A stretch of 64,000 nt of DNA, taken from an uncultured Fimbriimonadaceae bacterium (GTDB lineage Bacteria > Armatimonadota > UBA10988). The translations under genes and the position numbers were made by a program. The DNA lies in contig CAZHGD010000012.1 of the NCBI GenBank assembly GCA_964531735.1, positions 1 to 64,000 on the forward strand. Direction: 5' to 3'. Within the stretch, counting starts at the first letter, position 1, and each line of letters begins with the position of its first letter. The notes beneath the pieces are model-generated. The model worked only from the letters and a program-made list of their open reading frames with translations. It was not told where the DNA came from and made no database searches. This document shows, piece after piece, positions 21,995 to 30,377 of this stretch.

Positions 21995-23560
21995 TCACAG
22001 CCGGGCGAACTCGCTGATCACCTCGGGCGTGGTGGCATCGAAGCCGGCCACATCCATCATCAGCGGGTCCTCCGGGTCGGCGATGGAGCCGCCCGTGGCG
22101 GTCAGACCCACCACCGCCATCTTGGCCGCGATGCCCATCTGCCGCCGATAGTCGCGCAGCAGTTCCGCCGGATGGCCCGAAGGGCCCGCCCAGGTCTCGT
22201 TGTCCGTGAGGTTCACGAACACGTCGACCGGGACCTGCTGCTCGATGGCCCACTGCACCGGTAGCGCGCAGTTGGTGCCACCGCCGCAGCCGTCCAGCAC
22301 CTTGGTGACCTGGCCCAGGTTCATCTTGGGCGAGATCGCCAGCTCCCGGAGCCGCGTGTCGTAACCAACCAGGTGCCAGCGCGGTTCCACCCGCGCGGTC
22401 ACCAGCGCCAGGGCGGCCGCCACGGCGCCGCAGGTCAGTCGGGTGCCCGGCAGCGCGCCGAAGCTCATCGAGCCCGACGTGTCCACCGCCAGCAGCACCC
22501 GCTGCCCGATCGGCTCGACGTTGCCGAACGCGGCGTAGAACGCGGCGTCCAGCGCGTCGAGGATGGCCCGGTCGGCCGTCCAGCGCAGCGAACCGCGGTA
22601 GCCGCCGCCCGCCGCGTAGGTGCCGGCGGCCAGCAGCAGCGCGATCGGGTGGATACGCGACTTGCGGATCACCTCCGCGTTGCGCAGCCGCTCGGTAACC
22701 TGGCGCACCTCGTCGCTCAGCGGCGCCAGGACGCCGTTGGCGGTCAGCACGCCCAGGTTGCGCACCGTGGCCATCACGGGCAGGCGCGGCACCAGTTCGC
22801 GCCACACCGCCGGCGAGCGCTTCTCCGACGGGATCATCTCCCAGGAGACGTGCCCGCGCCGCACGATGTCGAGCACCTGGCCCTCGGTCAGTGTGCCGGC
22901 CAGCGCATCGACATCGCGCAGCACCTCGAGCGCGGGCTCTCCGCGGCGGCAGACCCAGTCGAACACGTTGGCGTGCTCGGCCGTCACCGCCGCCGGGTGC
23001 GCCAGGCGCAGCAGATCGCGGTGCGCCCAGCCATCCCGCTGCCGGTACTTGGCCACCTGGTACGCCAGGTCGGTCGCGCTCTGGCTGGTGTACCAGCGCG
23101 CCACGGCCTCGCGCAGCAGGCGGCCCCAGCCGCGGAACCCTTCGACGTACTCGGCGAAGTGGAACAGATGCGTGCCGATGCGCGCCACCTGTGGCAACGC
23201 CGCGGCCGCCGCGCGCCGCGCGGCCGGATGCGCCGTGGCCATGGCGAGCACGTACAGCGCCGGGTCGTTCGATGGCGCCCGCCCGGCGGTGGACACGGCC
23301 ACCACCTCGCGGACGACCCGCTCGGGATCCTCGTCGAGCAGCGCGCCGATGACCTGGACGTTGTCGAGCGTCAGCTCGCGGGCGCTGGTGTAGTAGGTAC
23401 CACCCAGCGTGCCGGTGACCAGGAACCGCCGCAGTTGCTGCCACGGATCGACCCGGAAGACGAAGCCGCCCGCCGCGTTCCGGACCATCGTCCGGCCGGC
23501 TATCGGCTCGCTCTGAGGCGTCCGGGTGTGACGGACGCGATGGATGTCGCTGTACCGCAT
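21995..23560 (-). CDS. rsr: Ro60 ortholog Rsr (TROVE domain plus vWA domain RNA-binding protein)
   Basis: The N-terminus (TPQSEPIAG...GGFVFRVDPWQQLRRFLVTGTLGGTYY) is typical of Ro60/Rsr. MIPSEKRSPAVW TROVE core. C-terminal vWA MIDAS motif DTSGSMS. Perfect AAGGAGG RBS 7 nt before the ATG at 23560. Confidence 0.9.
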   Translation of the reverse strand: MRYSDIHRVRHTRTPQSEPIAGRTMVRNAAGGFVFRVDPWQQLRRFLVTGTLGGTYYTSARELTLDNVQVIGALLDEDPERVVREVVAVSTAGRAPSNDPALYVLAMATAHPAARRAAAAALPQVARIGTHLFHFAEYVEGFRGWGRLLREAVARWYTSQSATDLAYQVAKYRQRDGWAHRDLLRLAHPAAVTAEHANVFDWVCRRGEPALEVLRDVDALAGTLTEGQVLDIVRRGHVSWEMIPSEKRSPAVWRELVPRLPVMATVRNLGVLTANGVLAPLSDEVRQVTERLRNAEVIRKSRIHPIALLLAAGTYAAGGGYRGSLRWTADRAILDALDAAFYAAFGNVEPIGQRVLLAVDTSGSMSFGALPGTRLTCGAVAAALALVTARVEPRWHLVGYDTRLRELAISPKMNLGQVTKVLDGCGGGTNCALPVQWAIEQQVPVDVFVNLTDNETWAGPSGHPAELLRDYRRQMGIAAKMAVVGLTATGGSIADPEDPLMMDVAGFDATTPEVISEFARL

Positions 23561-23728
23561 CGTTCGGCCCTCCTTCGTGGGCCTCGTCACGCGCCATCGC
23601 CCGGTGGGGGCGCACAAGGGAGCCGAGGGACATGGGAATCCAGCACGGATCACCGCTCCGCTTTGGAGCGGTTCAGGTGTCGAAACCTGACTTGCCACGA
23701 TAACCGTTCTGGTCCGGCCCACTCGGCC

Positions 23729-23859
23729 TGGTCTCCCGGGGCGGGTTCGAACCGCCGACCACCTTGGTCTGGTAGATAACCGTCACGGCAACGGCCCGGC
23801 ACGGGCATGGTGGTGCGCAACGGACTCTGAAGGTGCTCTACCGACTGAGCTACCGGGAG
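23729..23859 (-). ncRNA. tRNA-like non-coding RNA with an expanded anticodon arm; candidate Y RNA (YrlA-like tRNA mimic) associated with rsr
   Basis: The minus-strand sequence has these parts:
- 7-bp acceptor stem CTCCCGG/CCGGGAG
- U8 A9
- D arm GCTC-AGTCGGTA-GAGC
- a 72-nt insert in place of the 17-nt anticodon arm
- TGGTC variable region
- T arm GGCGG-TTCGAAC-CCGCC
- discriminator A
- encoded CCA
It lies 170 nt upstream of rsr on the same strand. Confidence 0.55.
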
Positions 23860-24178
23860 AGAGCGGGCAGGGCGTGTGTGCTTCCCAAGGGTGTTGGTTC
23901 CGCTTTCAGGATAACCTTGAGAATCCGGCCCTGCCCAAGTTCGCGAAGCGTCGAACCGGAGGTCACGACCGACCTGGGACCAGAGGTTGCTGGTGCCGGC
24001 TCGCCGCGCCACCGGACACACCGTGTCCGTGACTCGCGAGTCTTCGAGGCTGTCGTTTGGTCATATGCCTGCTCCACACCAGCATCCGTCCGCAGGACGG
24101 CTGAGAGTGTCGAACGGTATACCCGCTGTCGCTTATCGTCAAGCGCCGGAGTGTTGCGAAACGGTGTCGCGTCGGCGC

Positions 24179-26626
<2,448 letters not shown>

Positions 26627-26781
26627 CAGTCGGCCTCCAGGCCGAGGCGAACAGGTTTTCGCGATTATAGCGGCCGGTGGGGCAAAGGGCCAAGGCGATT
26701 GTCCGCGCGGCCGACGGCGCGCACGGCGTAATGCGCGGGGTGGGCGGCGCAACTCACCGGCACCGGGCGGGAGTGCCGCGC

Positions 26782-27603
26782 ATGGGTAGGCGACGGGTGG
26801 TCGCGCTGGGGTGCGGTCTGCTGGCGATCGGGCTGGCGCAACAGGTCTGCTATGGCAAGCTGACCGCGTTTTCGCCGGTGCTGCTGGGCTTCAGCCGGCA
26901 CGAGACCGCCCGCGCCGTGGTCTACCGGCAGGCCGGCGCCGGCTGGCCCGCGGACATCGACCTCGACGGCATGATCGCCGAGGTGGAGCGCTTCCATGAT
27001 CTGCGGTTCCGGCGCCGTCCGGAGTTGGTCGCGTTTGGCGACGTGGCCAGCTACCGCCGCCGGTCGCTGTCGCGCGCGCGGTTCTGCGCCTTCTCGAGCG
27101 GTCGCCTGCTGATCTCGCCCTGGGCGCTCCGCGAGGCGGCTGAAGGGCGCCTTTCGCTCGACATCTACCTGCGCCACGAGCTGTCACACGTGCTGATCTT
27201 CCAGCACCGCGGCTTCCTGGCCGAGCTCCGCTACCCGGCTTGGCTGCTGGAGGGCCTCGCCGTGTACAGCACGCAGCAGATGGGCACGACGTTCTACCCG
27301 AGCAAGGCCGACACCTACCGGCTGCTGCGGCAGGGCAACTACCTGCCGCCGCGCTGGTTCAAGACCCGCCGCGAGGACAGCGTGCCGTTGCGCGTGCCGT
27401 ACCGCCTCGGGTTCATCTACTCCGAGTTCGGCTGTCTCGTCGACTACCTGCAGGAGACCCACAGACCGGAGCGTCTGCTGGCCTATATGAAGCGGCTGCT
27501 CCGTGACAGCGACGAGGAGCGCGCCTTCCAGGCGGTCTACGGCTACTCGTTCGAGACCTGCCTGGAGCGGTTCCGGGCGCAGGCGGAGGTGGCTGAGCGC
27601 TGA
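26782..27603 (+). CDS. Hypothetical HExxH metallopeptidase-like membrane/secreted protein
   Basis: N-terminal hydrophobic segment (VVALGCGLLAIGLA). HELSHVLIFQH zinc-binding motif. Confidence 0.6.
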   Translation: MGRRRVVALGCGLLAIGLAQQVCYGKLTAFSPVLLGFSRHETARAVVYRQAGAGWPADIDLDGMIAEVERFHDLRFRRRPELVAFGDVASYRRRSLSRARFCAFSSGRLLISPWALREAAEGRLSLDIYLRHELSHVLIFQHRGFLAELRYPAWLLEGLAVYSTQQMGTTFYPSKADTYRLLRQGNYLPPRWFKTRREDSVPLRVPYRLGFIYSEFGCLVDYLQETHRPERLLAYMKRLLRDSDEERAFQAVYGYSFETCLERFRAQAEVAER

Positions 27604-27680: not shown

Positions 27681-29567
27681 TCAGGCTTCGGCGTCCGGTG
27701 ACGGCGGGGCGTCCTCGGTGGCTTCGCCGTTGGTGGTCGGCTTCAGCTTGTTGCCGACCGCGTCGAAGACACCGTCGAGCAGGCCCTTCAGATCGTCCGG
27801 CAGCGCTTTGGCGACGCCTTGCAGCAGGCTGCCCATCGACTGGCCGCGGTGGAAGCCTTCGGCCATCTGGGTGACTGTGTCCGGGTCGCCCCAGATGGTC
27901 ATCTTGGCCTCGGAGAGCGCCAGGCCCATGGCTTCCGACTGCGCCTTGGCCATCTCCACCTGGCCCTGGATCAGGATGCGGAACTTCTCCAGTTCAACCG
28001 CCACGCCCTCGTGCTTGGAGCGCGCGGCCAGCTCGGATTCGAGCACCTCGACGCGCTTGCGTTCCACCTCGACGCGCTCGGCTTCCACTTCCACCGGCAC
28101 CATCTGCTTGGCCCGCTCGCCCGACGCCTCCATCTGCGCCGCCTCGGCGGCCGCTTTGGCCTGGGCCAGCCTGGCGGCGGCCTGCGCCTCGGCGGCCTTC
28201 TGCTCGCCTTCGGCCTGGGCCACCACGGCGAACGCGCGCACCCCGGCCTGCGTCTCCTCGCGGACGCGCTGCTCCTGCGCCGCTTTGGCAGTGGCGATGA
28301 ACTTCTTCTGCGCCTCGCGCTCGGCTTCAGCGGTCTGCTGCACCGTCAGCACCTTCTGCTCGGCTTCCTGCCGGGCCGCTTCGGCGGCCAGGGCCTCGGC
28401 CTCCGCCGTGGCGCGCGCGGCGTCGCGCTCGGCCACGGTGATCTGGCGGTCGCGCTCGGCCACCTCGACCGCGCGCTGCCGCTCCTGGGCCGCCACCTGG
28501 ATGGCCTGATCGCGCTCGATGCTGGCCTGCTCCACCGCGCGTTCCTGCTGCACCTGGGCGGTCTTCACCTCCTGGTCGCGATGCGCCTCGGCCAGCGCAA
28601 TCTGCTGTTGGCGCGCGATCTCGGCCTCCTGCACCTGCCGCGCCTGCTGGATCTGGAACTCCTTCATCTCGCGGTCGGCTTCCACCTGTGCGTTGGTCAC
28701 CTGTGTCCGCTGCAGCGCCTCGGCTTCGGCCTTGGCGCGCTCCAGTTCCAGGATCTGCTTGCGCGTCTCGACGTCCTGGCTCTGCTTGGCCCGCTCGGCC
28801 TCGCGCATCAGCGTGTTGCGCTGCACTTCGGCCGCCTGCTCAATCTGCGTCCGCTCGGTCAGCGCCGTCTGCGTGATCTCGGCGATGCGCCGCTTGCCCT
28901 GCGCGTCGAAGATGTTCAGGTCCGACAGCGAGCGCGGATCCGTCTGGTCGAGCATCGAGATGGTCACCGCTTCCAGCGTCAGCCCGTTGTGCTGCAGGTC
29001 GCCGCGCACCGCCTCGGAGACCGCCGTGGCGAACTTCTCGCGCTCGACGTGCAACTCGACGAGCTGCTTCTGCGCCGCCACCGAGCGGAGCGCCGAGACC
29101 AGCTTCTCGCCCACCAGTTGGGCGATGGAGTCCGCGTGGGTGCCTTTCTCGCCCAGTGAGCGCGCCGCGGCGAGGATGTCCGGCTCCTGCGGCGCCACCT
29201 TGATGTAGAACTCGGCCTCGACGTTGACCCGCAGGTTGTCGGCGGTGATCAACGCGTCGGGTCCGTTGCGCTGCACGCCCAGCTTCATCGTCTGCAGGCT
29301 GATGGGCACCACGTTGTGCAGGATCGGAATCACGATGGCGCCGCCGCCGAGGACGGCCTTCTCGCCGCCCTGACCGGTGCGGACGAAGGCCTCATGGGCC
29401 AACGTCTTGCGATAGAGCCGGATGGACGCCACCAGCGCGCCGGCACCGACCAGGCACGAACCGAACACCAGACCGGCGATGCGGTGCACCATGGTGGCGT
29501 CCGGAACCACGAACGGTGCGACGATGGCCGCCACACCCACGACCACGAGTACCAGGGCAGCAAACAT
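27681..29567 (-). CDS. yqiK: Flotillin-family SPFH/band-7 protein (YqiK-like)
   Basis: N-terminal TM. SPFH domain. Very long E/A/Q/R coiled-coil. Flotillin C-terminal tail. GGAG RBS. Confidence 0.85.
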   Translation of the reverse strand: MFAALVLVVVGVAAIVAPFVVPDATMVHRIAGLVFGSCLVGAGALVASIRLYRKTLAHEAFVRTGQGGEKAVLGGGAIVIPILHNVVPISLQTMKLGVQRNGPDALITADNLRVNVEAEFYIKVAPQEPDILAAARSLGEKGTHADSIAQLVGEKLVSALRSVAAQKQLVELHVEREKFATAVSEAVRGDLQHNGLTLEAVTISMLDQTDPRSLSDLNIFDAQGKRRIAEITQTALTERTQIEQAAEVQRNTLMREAERAKQSQDVETRKQILELERAKAEAEALQRTQVTNAQVEADREMKEFQIQQARQVQEAEIARQQQIALAEAHRDQEVKTAQVQQERAVEQASIERDQAIQVAAQERQRAVEVAERDRQITVAERDAARATAEAEALAAEAARQEAEQKVLTVQQTAEAEREAQKKFIATAKAAQEQRVREETQAGVRAFAVVAQAEGEQKAAEAQAAARLAQAKAAAEAAQMEASGERAKQMVPVEVEAERVEVERKRVEVLESELAARSKHEGVAVELEKFRILIQGQVEMAKAQSEAMGLALSEAKMTIWGDPDTVTQMAEGFHRGQSMGSLLQGVAKALPDDLKGLLDGVFDAVGNKLKPTTNGEATEDAPPSPDAEA

Positions 29568-29579
29568 GCTCAGCTCCGT

Positions 29580-30377
29580 TCAGTCCACGTCGTAGGGCGC
29601 CGCGAGGTAGACGCCCTGTGCGGGGTCCCAGTCGACCAGGACCGCCATACTCCCCCGTTCGAGCGGCTCCTCACCCACCAGCCGGCAGGGCACTTCCACA
29701 TAGCCGAGCTTTGGCCCTGAGGCCATGCCGGCGCCCTGTTCCCCGGTGATCCGGTGGGTCACTTCGACCACCTCGCCCCGGAGACCACCGGGGCGAATGG
29801 CGTTCGACTCGATGGCCGGCAGAATCGCCGACATCGTGCGCGCCGTGAACCGCGTCGACCACGAGGCACCCAATCCCGCCGCCAGCAGCGACGGCCCGAT
29901 GAACCACTCCGGCCGGTGGATGATCAGCGCCAGCAGCATGTTGGCGGTCAACCCGAACACCCCCCAGCCGACACAGAACAGCTCCACGACCAACACGAGC
30001 GACACCCGTCCGGCCCCGATGAAGCGCAGCCAGTCGCCGAGGAAGGCGAACACCGGCTGCTGCTCATCGGCCGGGTGCGCCGATGAATCGTGCCCGTCGC
30101 CATGCGTTCCGCCAGGCGCCTCGGCATGAGCGTCGGCGTGCACTTCATGGCCCCCCACGGCCACGTGGCCGTGGGCGTCGAAATGAGCGTCACCGTGCGC
30201 GTCGAGGTGAGCGTCACCGTGCGCGTCGGCGTGGCCGCCCAGGTCGACGTGCCCATGCGCGTCGAAGTGCTCGGCCAGACTGCCGGTGACCAGCATGATC
30301 AGCAGGTAGACCACCGCGACGAGGAACGGGATGACGTAGACCAGGTTCCACCACTGCCACAGATCGGCCCCGTTCAT
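29580..30377 (-). CDS. yqiJ: NfeD-like membrane protein (YqiJ-like) with a His/Asp-rich repeat insert
   Basis: TM helices plus a C-terminal NfeD OB-fold-like region (GEVVEVTHRITGEQGAGMASGPKLGYVEV). Immediately upstream of the flotillin gene, as in yqiJK operons. Repeats DAHGHVDLGGHADAHGDAHLDAHGDAHFDAHGH. Confidence 0.7.
   Translation of the reverse strand: MNGADLWQWWNLVYVIPFLVAVVYLLIMLVTGSLAEHFDAHGHVDLGGHADAHGDAHLDAHGDAHFDAHGHVAVGGHEVHADAHAEAPGGTHGDGHDSSAHPADEQQPVFAFLGDWLRFIGAGRVSLVLVVELFCVGWGVFGLTANMLLALIIHRPEWFIGPSLLAAGLGASWSTRFTARTMSAILPAIESNAIRPGGLRGEVVEVTHRITGEQGAGMASGPKLGYVEVPCRLVGEEPLERGSMAVLVDWDPAQGVYLAAPYDVD

Follow-up and report, generated by a model that had tools for sequence, protein, structure and literature searches.

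Introduction

What is a tRNA-shaped sequence doing directly upstream of a gene for a Ro60 protein, and could it be the RNA that this protein binds? The question is raised by a stretch of 64,000 nucleotides (nt), here called the window, from an uncultured Fimbriimonadaceae bacterium of the Armatimonadota (assembly GCA_964531735.1, contig CAZHGD010000012.1, positions 1 to 64,000). On its minus strand the window carries rsr, the gene for the Ro60 orthologue Rsr, and upstream of it, on the same strand, a 131-nt RNA element (23859-23729 (-)) with a complete tRNA frame in ordinary order. A first-pass annotation, made from the letters of the window, had proposed this element as a candidate Y RNA; its placement upstream of rsr on the same strand holds, and the distance to the rsr start is 168 nt, not the 170 nt given there. 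Our analysis indicates that the element belongs to a class that is a circular permutation of the bacterial Y RNA YrlA, its normal-order counterpart, and we conclude that it is probably a Y RNA gene of the YrlA lineage, built in the ordinary tRNA order, whose product is the non-coding RNA partner of Rsr.

In YrlA the modules follow the order 5'-Ro motif-V-T-AS-D-3' (Chen 2014, PMC4201824). The Y RNAs that Mycobacterium smegmatis encodes upstream of rsr are bound by Rsr (PMC4201824), and the Rsr-recognition motif GNCGAAN0-1G, which resembles GGUCCGA, is accompanied by a YUAY element before the hairpin on the T-arm side (Chen et al., PMC4201824). In the literature that we searched only the permuted form is described, the search being incomplete for reviews and for the source on the b7a-tRNA discussed below, so that an earlier mention is possible. 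Chen et al. threw out matches overlapping annotated tandem tRNA genes (PMC4201824), a filter that would tend to hide a normal-order class.

Results

A tRNA frame that carries a rod

Every part of the cloverleaf that the first-pass annotation had read, from the acceptor, U8 A9 and the D and T arms to the UGGUC variable loop, the discriminator A and the CCA, is indeed there (Table 1), as are all the nucleotides of the tertiary contacts: U8, A14, G15, G18 G19, C48, G53, U54 U55 C56 and A58. The spacing from A26 to U44 is exactly 72 nt, where the anticodon arm would stand. The minimum free energy (MFE) fold, which recovers the acceptor, D and T stems, agrees with the rod that had been proposed for these 72 nt, CCGUUGCG/CGUGACGG around GCCCG-UGC-CGGGC. 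An anticodon arm with a stem of 5 base pairs (bp) and a 7-nt loop is not present in the element. While the 72-nt insert stands, the further claim that it replaces the anticodon arm does not hold in full: the top pairs of the anticodon stem are kept, and most family members retain a loop-like hairpin. The base stem, which in the window is the 4-bp CCUU/AAGG that the first-pass annotation had proposed and in the family a 2-bp stem, takes the place of tRNA pairs 27:43 and 28:42, and we therefore read the rod, ~45 nt long, as inserted on the 5' side of the anticodon stem and not as a replacement of the whole arm.

Metazoan Y RNAs, like Yrn1 of Deinococcus radiodurans, have a bulged helix to which Ro60/Rsr binds, with the 5' strand GG(U/G)CCGA and the 3' strand UUG(A/C)C(U/C). 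Ro60 contacts the GGUCCGA/GNCGAA motif (PMC4201824), which the bulged helix at the tip of our rod resembles, and we predict this helix to be the site to which Rsr binds.

The Rfam tRNA model (RF00005) matches the element at 46.5 bits (gathering score 29, E = 1.3e-8), with 71/71 model positions matched and 66 nt inserted in the anticodon region. The match surfaced only in E-value mode with laxer filters, applied to the 900-nt region 23400-24300, where tRNA is the only family of the Rfam library to match; a scan of the whole window at gathering thresholds gave nothing, though the match lies 17 bits over the threshold. ARAGORN called no tRNA anywhere in the window. A covariance model built from 63 homologous elements (R1) scores the element at 92 bits (E = 1e-25), its sole real match in the 64 kb.

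Table 1. Features of the rsr locus, in window coordinates; RNA sequences are written 5' to 3' on the strand given.
Feature	Position	Strand	Remarks
Promoter-like block	24114..24142	(-)	-35 TTGACG 24142-24137, -10-like TATACCGT 24121-24114; just past the helicase stop codon
Module 0, structured 5' leader	23989..24100	(-)	hairpin CCGUCC-UGC-GGACGG 24100-24086; GCUGGUG 24083-24077 with CACCAGC 23995-23989
Module 1, simple stem-loop Y RNA candidate	23864..23937	(-)	5' strand GGGCAGGGCCGGA...AAGGUUAUC, GGUUAUC, 3' strand CACACGCCCUGCCC
Acceptor stem, 7 bp	CUCCCGG 23859-23853 with CCGGGAG 23739-23733	(-)	seen in the sequence
U8 and A9	between acceptor 5' strand and D arm	(-)	both seen in the sequence
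D arm GCUC-AGUCGGUA-GAGC	23850-23835	(-)	followed by A26
Base stem CCUU/AAGG, 4 bp	23833-23830 with 23765-23762	(-)	foot of the anticodon stem
Rod in the tRNA frame	23823-23780	(-)	predicted Rsr-binding site
Lower rod stem	CCGUUGCG 23823-23816 with CGUGACGG 23787-23780	(-)	one bulged C
Bulged helix with Ro60-binding motif	CAUGCCCG 23809-23802, loop UGC 23801-23799, CGGGCCGUUG 23798-23789	(-)	
UUAUC, the YUAY element of YrlA	23779-23775	(-)	within GGUUAUC 3' of the bulged helix
UACCAGACC	23774-23766	(-)	degenerate remnant of the anticodon-loop-like hairpin typical of the family
Variable loop UGGUC, 5 nt	23761-23757	(-)	
T arm GGCGG-UUCGAAC-CCGCC	23756-23740	(-)	
Discriminator A73 and encoded CCA	A73 23732; CCA 23731-23729	(-)	
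Module 3, second simple Y RNA candidate	23621..23728	(-)	5' strand GGCCGAGUGGGCCGGA...ACGGUUAUC, GGUUAUC, 3' strand CAUGUCCCUCGGCU
Shine-Dalgarno hairpin	23561..23583	(-)	GGCCC 23583-23579, loop ACGAAGGA, GGGCC 23570-23566, GAACG, AUG 23560
rsr, Ro60 orthologue	21995..23560	(-)	521 aa, ATG at 23560

Conservation and covariation

One genome per species was scanned with an Rsr alignment, and the 80 most similar rsr loci (44-73% identity; cited below by L numbers) were retained, from Chloroflexota, Armatimonadota, Gemmatimonadota, Myxococcota, Cyanobacteria, Planctomycetota and others. A pattern scan of these loci found 68 closed tRNA frames whose D and T arms are 45-100 nt apart, and 66/68 share a common insert design, in which a lower stem and an internal loop lead to a YUUGCCC...GGGCCGNNGG helix (loop 3-20 nt). 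GGUUAYC comes next, in most cases with a small hairpin after it, and then RGGUC and the T arm. Loci that carry the element span Chloroflexota, Armatimonadota, Gemmatimonadota, Myxococcota and Planctomycetota.

Covariation among these homologues, whose collection from rsr-upstream regions the first-pass annotation had proposed, supports both the tRNA frame and the extended arm. When 63 elements are aligned with MAFFT, unguided by structure, 88% of the cells are paired, against 36-49% with partners slid by 1-3 columns, and the covariation score is 0.50 against 0.09-0.14 for the slid partners; in the model-fitted alignment 91% are paired. Compensatory changes are found at 7/7 pairs of the acceptor, 4/5 of the T stem, 2/2 of the base stem, 9/10 of the lower rod and 5/7 of the bulged helix, the invariant D stem being the only helix that shows no covariation. 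RNAalifold, unaided, recovers from the MAFFT alignment the acceptor, D and T stems together with the GCCC/GGGC core of the bulged helix. Because our first collection had demanded a paired acceptor, we searched again with that requirement removed: there were 58 matches to D arm, motif and T arm, all on the rsr strand, of which 48 have 7/7 acceptor pairs and 3 have 6/7, while shifting the acceptor 3' strand by 1-3 nt as a control gives a mode of 3-5 pairs.

The family consensus of the bulged helix is YUUGCCC/GGGC(C)GAAGG, with a bulged C and 90-92% of cells paired. Its 5' strand GGGCCGAAGG holds GNCGAAN0-1G, and the YUUGCCC opposite completes the helix with the one bulged C. GGGCCG occurs in 54/62 inserts and the strict GNCGAAN0-1G in only 12/62; GGTTAYC is near-invariant and places UUAYC after the bulged helix.

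At the geometry of a tRNA anticodon arm, 44/78 rod-bearing elements have a 3-bp stem and a 7-nt loop of consensus C U N N N R A, and ARAGORN calls partial tRNAs from this anticodon-like hairpin in members of the family. We note that the hairpin, which lies between the rod and the variable loop, reads C32 U33 NNN R37 A38 with a varied triplet (CAU, AUU, GUC, GAU, others; examples at L020 2030-2050 and L048 4400-4425), and that actinophage YrlA has an equal hairpin. At the other end of the molecule, the genomically encoded CCA is real in the window, as had been claimed, but it is not a conserved feature of the class: it occurs in 2/8 copies of the nearest relatives and in 6/62 family-wide, a rate no different from that of the neighbouring ordinary tRNA-sized frames (5/48). 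An encoded CCA fits tRNA-like maturation.

Some acceptor stems have a further peculiarity. G3:U70 is present in 14/62 rod-bearing elements, 13 of them with A73 (the alanine identity set, as in tRNA-Ala and transfer-messenger RNA, tmRNA), versus 2/48 tRNA-sized frames; such elements include L014 1850-1958, L023 1751-1859, L024 1612-1739, L025 1749-1860, L045 1876-1986, L049 1519-1646, L062 1738-1873, L067 1629-1753, L071 1631-1762 and L078 1496-1615. G1-C72, G2-C71 and G3-U70 are fixed in them while acceptor positions 4-7 vary with compensation. The window copy is without G3:U70.

Linkage to rsr

By a stricter regular expression, rod-bearing non-permuted elements stand on the rsr strand in 41/80 loci and on the opposite strand in 0. 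In this count 64/68 elements are upstream of rsr, at a median of ~640 nt, and 4/68 downstream; R1 has long, rod-bearing matches in 53 loci. The pattern G[GA]G[CT]CG-N7-15-[GA]TTAYC, counted over the rsr loci, occurs 280 times on the rsr strand versus 4 on the other. Near the Rsr proteins most similar to that of the window, the normal-order form is found in 41 loci and the permuted form in 17.

Is this linkage a property of any tRNA frame with a long insert? A decayed tRNA pseudogene, present also away from rsr, is what the first-pass annotation had named as speaking against its proposal. In metagenome and viral contigs, 19/20 of the motif-pattern elements that are classed as normal-order and have enough flank to be assessed have rsr at <=2.5 kb on the same strand, by a permuted/normal-order classifier that, with its widened D-arm pattern, leaves 97 elements unclassified. 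A motif-free scan of viral contigs (55-85 nt between D arm and T loop) gave 85 other closed tRNA frames, of which 0/85 have the Ro60 motif and 0/85 have rsr in the fetched loci (43 with at least 3 kb of downstream flank). From this control we conclude that the long-insert tRNA frame is not specific to rsr, and that the insert with the Ro60 helix is. A blastn search with the window element against annotated phage genomes found nothing.

Among viral loci L330-L449 (for example L344 7312, L335 557 and L331 3971) the long-insert frames not associated with rsr include three notable kinds: those with ~40 nt right after a UAU anticodon, those whose inserts share ACAGCAA, and those in which a T and a D arm are nested in the anticodon region. 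Ordinary tRNA arrays, of 11-27 genes for many amino acids, adjoin rsr on the same strand in L009, L011, L012, L017, L033, L035, L048, L050, L055 and L078, and in Chloroflexota and other phyla such arrays are interleaved with Y RNA candidates (for example L012 148-2118 and L048 1465-6431).

The closest relatives are five Armatimonadota loci from metagenome assemblies (Rsr 69-73% identical), in which the genes on both sides of rsr differ. A non-coding leader of 600-1100 nt with the tRNA frame and its insert is nonetheless kept upstream of rsr, and 3/4 distinct relative loci have two tandem units. The duplication covers the whole unit of stem-loop, tRNA-shaped RNA, second stem-loop and a GAAAGGAGGGCCG resembling a ribosome-binding site, at L002 2090-2440 and 2470-3000, at L004 2270-2620 and 2650-3000, and likewise in L005; the GAAAGGAGGGCCG-type block of the first copy has no rsr after it. 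L002 (2815-2870) and L005 (2812-2867) also hold a mini tRNA-like element, with the acceptor GCUCCCGG/UCGGGAGC, one hairpin and a T arm, lacking D arm and rod, which stands immediately ahead of the final stem-loop Y RNA candidate.

A circular permutation of YrlA

The class to which the window element belongs and canonical YrlA are related by circular permutation. Aligned to a profile of the normal-order class, 99 canonical YrlA in their native order reach a median of 29 bits over 63 profile positions. After rotation in silico, by cutting the acceptor loop and joining the ends, the median rises to 58 bits over 116 positions, and 98/99 score higher. The result of the rotation implies that both forms share their parts and the circular arrangement of these, and that what sets them apart is which helix ends in a loop. 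Together with the linkage to rsr, the covariation and the Ro60 signature, this colinearity bears out the suggestion that the candidate is non-permuted, unlike the YrlA described so far.

The motif combined with a T-loop pattern recovers many canonical YrlA in metagenome and viral contigs, often as tandem arrays. The canonical YrlA in L329 and L087 reach 36 bits with RF02553, below its gathering score of 69, and normal-order elements match the tRNA model only. In two actinophages a permuted YrlA that the GenBank record leaves unannotated lies just upstream of a 'Ro-like RNA binding protein' gene: at L327 ~2215-2382 (Gordonia phage BearBQ) and at L329 ~2150-2323 (Mycobacterium phage SrishMeg2525), where small hypothetical proteins are annotated in its place.

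Other modules of the leader

Three RNA modules of the leader carry the Ro60-binding motif, and the tRNA-shaped element stands between the other two. GGCCG-N7-15-GTTAYC has 3 matches in the 64-kb window, all at 23699-23930 (-), versus 0.4 expected. Module 1 and module 3, on either side of the tRNA frame, are simple stem-loops. The ends of module 1 sit in its motif-bearing helix, its stem is closed in the MFE fold (z = -2.4) and it is kept in 8/8 units of the Armatimonadota relatives; it stops ~5 nt ahead of acceptor position +1. Module 3 begins on the base following the CCA, the MFE fold closes its positions 1-108 (z = -2.1), and its termini and motif are kept in every unit of the Armatimonadota relatives (GGCCGCGGGCCGGA...AUGCCCGCGGCC). 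The first-pass annotation had listed a separate hairpin, CCGCTCC-aaag-GGAGCGG at 23650-23672; it turns out to be an internal part of module 3, and it is properly CCGCUCC-AAAGC-GGAGCGG, 23671-23653 (-), with a 5-nt loop. Given that module 1 stops just before the acceptor and that module 3 abuts the CCA, cleavage at both ends of the tRNA frame would set the ends of all three RNAs. Modules 1 and 3 have the layout with ends in the helix, yet neither matches the Rfam Y_RNA model. Over the 80 loci we count 178 simple motif sites that have no T arm, 172 of them scorable, and a closing stem of at least 5/6 pairs is found in 84, versus 23 in the shuffled control.

Further upstream, module 0 is kept in sequence in 5 loci; a consensus fold pairs GCUGGUG with CACCAGC in 4/5, with slight covariation. 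A small leader open reading frame (ORF) there (ATG ~24063, GGAG-N7-AUG, 21-38 codons) was considered and rejected: the peptides are not conserved in relatives, and a conserved long-range pairing occupies the place instead. The block of Table 1 that begins with TTGACG is a putative promoter, judged by its conservation: its TTGAC + TA..C.T core is invariant and equally spaced across five rsr loci of Armatimonadota that have different genes upstream. A conserved box, ACCGTTTCGCAACA (24165-24152), lies upstream of the -35 element.

At the downstream end of the leader the Shine-Dalgarno sequence occupies the loop and 3' strand of a fourth helix with the Ro60 motif, GGCCC-ACGAAGGA-GGGCCGAACG-AUG. 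The GCCGAACG before the rsr start fits the YrlA motif GNCGAAN0-1G; GAAAGGAGGGCCGAACGATG is kept in 5/5 relatives, with GAUGCCC as the 5' strand in two. Loop-capped helices of the GGGCCGAAAGGAG type adjoin the Shine-Dalgarno sequence in other phyla as well, for example in L014, L045 and L072, and in L014 the motif helix that abuts the start codon reads ACUUGCCCC-UUU-GGGGCCGAAAGGAG. Speculatively, the helix that overlaps the Shine-Dalgarno sequence is a candidate site for control by Rsr of its own translation.

The rsr gene and its neighbours

That the gene downstream encodes Ro60/Rsr, as the first-pass annotation had it, is confirmed: its product has TROVE and vWA_Ro60 domains (Pfam), and it matches PDB structures of human and Xenopus Ro60 and of Deinococcus radiodurans Rsr with E of 1e-100 to 1e-104. 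We found 3262 homologues, the nearest being Armatimonadota proteins that are 69-73% identical and 521-522 aa long. The rsr frame is open further upstream, to GTG 23722 (21995-23722 (-), 575 aa), and in that longer form the gene and module 3 would overlap. The start at ATG 23560 is favoured over GTG 23722 by the homologues and by conservation of the Shine-Dalgarno sequence. A gene caller that picked the 575-aa form would conceal the RNA, which is what befell M. smegmatis YrlA (PMC4201824).

Upstream of the leader lies a gene for a DEAD-box helicase with HRQ1-type winged-helix and MrfA zinc-binding domains (24179-26752 (-)), which is not kept beside rsr in the Armatimonadota relatives; three ORFs that have no Pfam match precede it on the same strand (26665-27177, 27681-29567 and 29580-30377 (-)). 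Pfam finds no Band-7 or RtcB domain in the eight ORFs neighbouring rsr, immediate flanks included, of which 4/8 have no match of any kind.

Discussion

The anatomy of the element, its conservation and covariation, its linkage to rsr and its permutation relationship to YrlA were all obtained directly, and together they lead us to regard the element as a Y RNA gene in ordinary tRNA order, a conclusion that we consider probable. Several observations weigh against it. As to the element itself, its folding energy is unremarkable (z = -1.5), and as such z-scores are weak across the modules (-1.5 to -2.4) we keep them out of the evidence. The comparison with Rfam that the first-pass annotation had suggested gave, apart from the tRNA match, no match of the YrlA (RF02553) or Y_RNA (RF00019) models in 23400-24300 at E up to 10. 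The helix of the window copy deviates from the family, with CAUG versus CUUG and GGGCCGUU versus GGGCCGAA, and since it reads GCCGUUG, with UU in place of AA, followed by UUAU, this copy fails the strict GNCGAAN0-1G. Nor does the window copy form the anticodon-loop-like hairpin of most family members, either in a fixed-geometry test or in its match to the R1 model. As to the locus, consensus scans of the region called no promoter and no terminator, and our linkage statistics are only partly independent because the loci and pattern scans were selected via rsr or via the motif.

How else could the locus be read? The alternative that survives best, though we think it unlikely, is that the motif helices of the leader act in cis only, so that Rsr controls the stability or translation of its own mRNA and no stable trans-acting RNA is freed. 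Such a reading accommodates the fact that every module of the window lies in the 5' leader of rsr, with no terminator-like site found before the gene, and that a motif helix overlaps the Shine-Dalgarno sequence and start codon both in the window and in other phyla. However, an operator needs no full tRNA frame with kept elbow and covarying 7-bp acceptor, which is the very thing that RNase P and 3'-end enzymes recognise. Moreover, Rsr binds the Y RNAs that M. smegmatis encodes upstream of rsr, which are released by cleavage of a shared precursor (PMC4201824), and 4/68 of our elements are downstream of rsr. A role in cis and a trans-acting role are mutually compatible.

One could also imagine that the tRNA frame is mere punctuation, a signal for RNase P and RNase Z to cut the leader, and that the rod has no partner of its own. 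The close spacing of module 1 and module 3 around the frame invites this thought, since the cuts would set their termini. A bare tRNA would suffice for that purpose, however, and nothing in the insert is conserved as specifically as the rod, which covaries and carries the same motif as the flanking candidates and canonical YrlA; we therefore hold this explanation to be very improbable.

Lower still we rank an ordinary tRNA gene, either decayed or bearing a removable intron or insertion. tRNA is, after all, the only library family to match, many members keep an anticodon-loop-like hairpin from which ARAGORN calls partial tRNAs, tRNA arrays adjoin rsr in some loci, and phage contigs hold other tRNA frames with long inserts. 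Against these points, the window copy has no anticodon stem-loop, and the insertion is located in the anticodon stem, on its 5' side, and not in the loop. The group I introns known from bacterial tRNA genes are ~200 nt or more and sit in the anticodon loop. Our insert, at 66-72 nt, is far below that size, and no intron family matched it. A decaying pseudogene would show none of what we see, namely an insert that is conserved, covarying, motif-bearing across phyla and tied to rsr. A cloverleaf arising by chance is rejected by the scores of 46.5 bits with the tRNA model and 92 bits with R1.

We return, then, to a Y RNA in ordinary tRNA order and ask how it might be made and used. The conserved putative promoter just past the helicase gene would drive transcription of the entire leader together with rsr. 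RNase P would cut at the 5' end of the acceptor, and tRNA 3'-end processing would trim to A73-CCA, the CCA being encoded in the window copy; we propose this release by RNase P and 3'-end processing because of the precedent of M. smegmatis YrlA. The cuts at the tRNA ends would free the tRNA-shaped RNA along with the stem-loop Y RNA candidates on either side of it and the rsr mRNA, and Rsr would bind the bulged helix of each RNA. The tRNA-shaped body would then be a stable module that touches an effector, as proposed for YrlA, and, by analogy with other Y RNAs, might tether Rsr to another factor or gate the Rsr ring. Transcription, processing, Rsr binding and downstream role of the window element are thus predictions, drawn from sequence and from the mycobacterial precedent.

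Beyond this mechanism, three further ideas form a joint proposal that we offer tentatively and would not expect to hold in its entirety: that the normal-order form is ancestral, that its members are substrates of tRNA enzymes linking Rsr to translation or else nuclease decoys, and that Rsr represses itself. On the first, a tRNA gene may have gained a Ro60-binding helix in its anticodon stem, and permuted YrlA may have arisen from tandem copies; tandem arrays of the normal-order and of the permuted kind both occur in the loci studied. On the second, RNAs of this class may serve as genuine substrates for RNase P, the CCA-adding enzyme and aminoacyl-tRNA synthetases, since their acceptor ends are free, with G3:U70 plus A73 in 13/62 and the anticodon-like loop in 44/78 as pointers. 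Such RNAs may tie Rsr directly to the tRNA or translation machinery, or may serve as decoys for anticodon nucleases. On the third, Rsr may repress its own translation via the motif helix over its Shine-Dalgarno sequence.

What would such a class of RNAs mean more generally? A normal-order counterpart is the piece previously wanting in the proposed tRNA origin of YrlA, and tandem copies offer a simple route between the two forms. It is also a natural single-piece RNA that unites an open tRNA-like acceptor with a Ro60-type helix, and as such it bears on the question of which tRNA-binding factors interact with the tRNA-like domain of Y RNAs, and of whether some Y RNAs carry CCA tails or are even charged. 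For annotation, the lesson is that genes of this kind are missed by ARAGORN and by Rfam in gathering mode, or are partly miscalled as tRNAs.

Among known systems the nearest is YrlA (RF02553; PMC4201824; structure in Wang et al. 2018, bioRxiv 10.1101/312249), which likewise adjoins rsr on the same strand. The two share tRNA-like D and T arms with equal elbow nucleotides, modules in equal circular order, and a motif on the 5' strand (GGGCCGAAG, near GNCGAAN0-1G) that is followed by YUAY and by a hairpin before the T arm. They differ in where the molecule is open: the window class leaves its acceptor ends free and has the linear order acceptor 5' - D - rod - T - acceptor 3', whereas YrlA, read 5' to 3', has the order Ro strand - V - T - closed acceptor hairpin - D - Ro strand. 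The Ro60-motif helix is capped by a loop in the window class and is built by the two RNA ends in YrlA. In M. smegmatis, RNase P cleaves YrlA, which acquires a CCA in vivo, and a single precursor encoded upstream of rsr yields both YrlA and YrlB (PMC4201824). The window class would share with this processed YrlA (Chen et al. 2014) an open 7-bp acceptor made by RNase P cleavage, a CCA tail and co-transcription with a further Y RNA upstream of rsr; however, M. smegmatis YrlA comes from a permuted gene and its mature RNA is in two pieces, 82 + 65 nt, while the window class would be one continuous RNA with a closed Ro60-binding helix.

The layouts of metazoan Y RNAs and of D. radiodurans Yrn1 are matched by modules 1 and 3, which have their ends in the motif helix. 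The tRNA-shaped element is unlike them, with its ends in the acceptor stem and a UGC-capped motif helix, and metazoan Y RNAs have no evident tRNA-like domain (PMC4201824). With tRNA (RF00005) the element shares the acceptor, U8, the D arm with G18 G19, C48, the T arm with UUCGA, the discriminator and the CCA. In place of the anticodon stem-loop, however, the window copy has a 72-nt insert with a predicted protein-binding helix, and it is linked to rsr and not to translation genes. A different non-permuted tRNA look-alike, the tRNA-sized, Band-7-associated b7a-tRNA, belongs to RNA-repair loci with RtcB and is reported to occur now and then beside rsr (Burroughs & Aravind 2016, as reported in Wang et al. 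2018, bioRxiv 10.1101/312249). In that second-hand description the b7a-tRNA is close to authentic tRNA, whereas the window element is 131 nt long and the eight ORFs scanned around it show no Band-7 or RtcB domain. We know of no report of a Ro60-binding rod in the b7a-tRNA. Finally, the existence of one fold in two circular orders, according to lineage, has parallels in two-piece tmRNA and, among red algae and archaea, in tRNA genes of permuted order (as cited by Wang et al. 2018). These are other RNAs with other functions, and in the case of the Y RNAs it is the permuted form that was described first.

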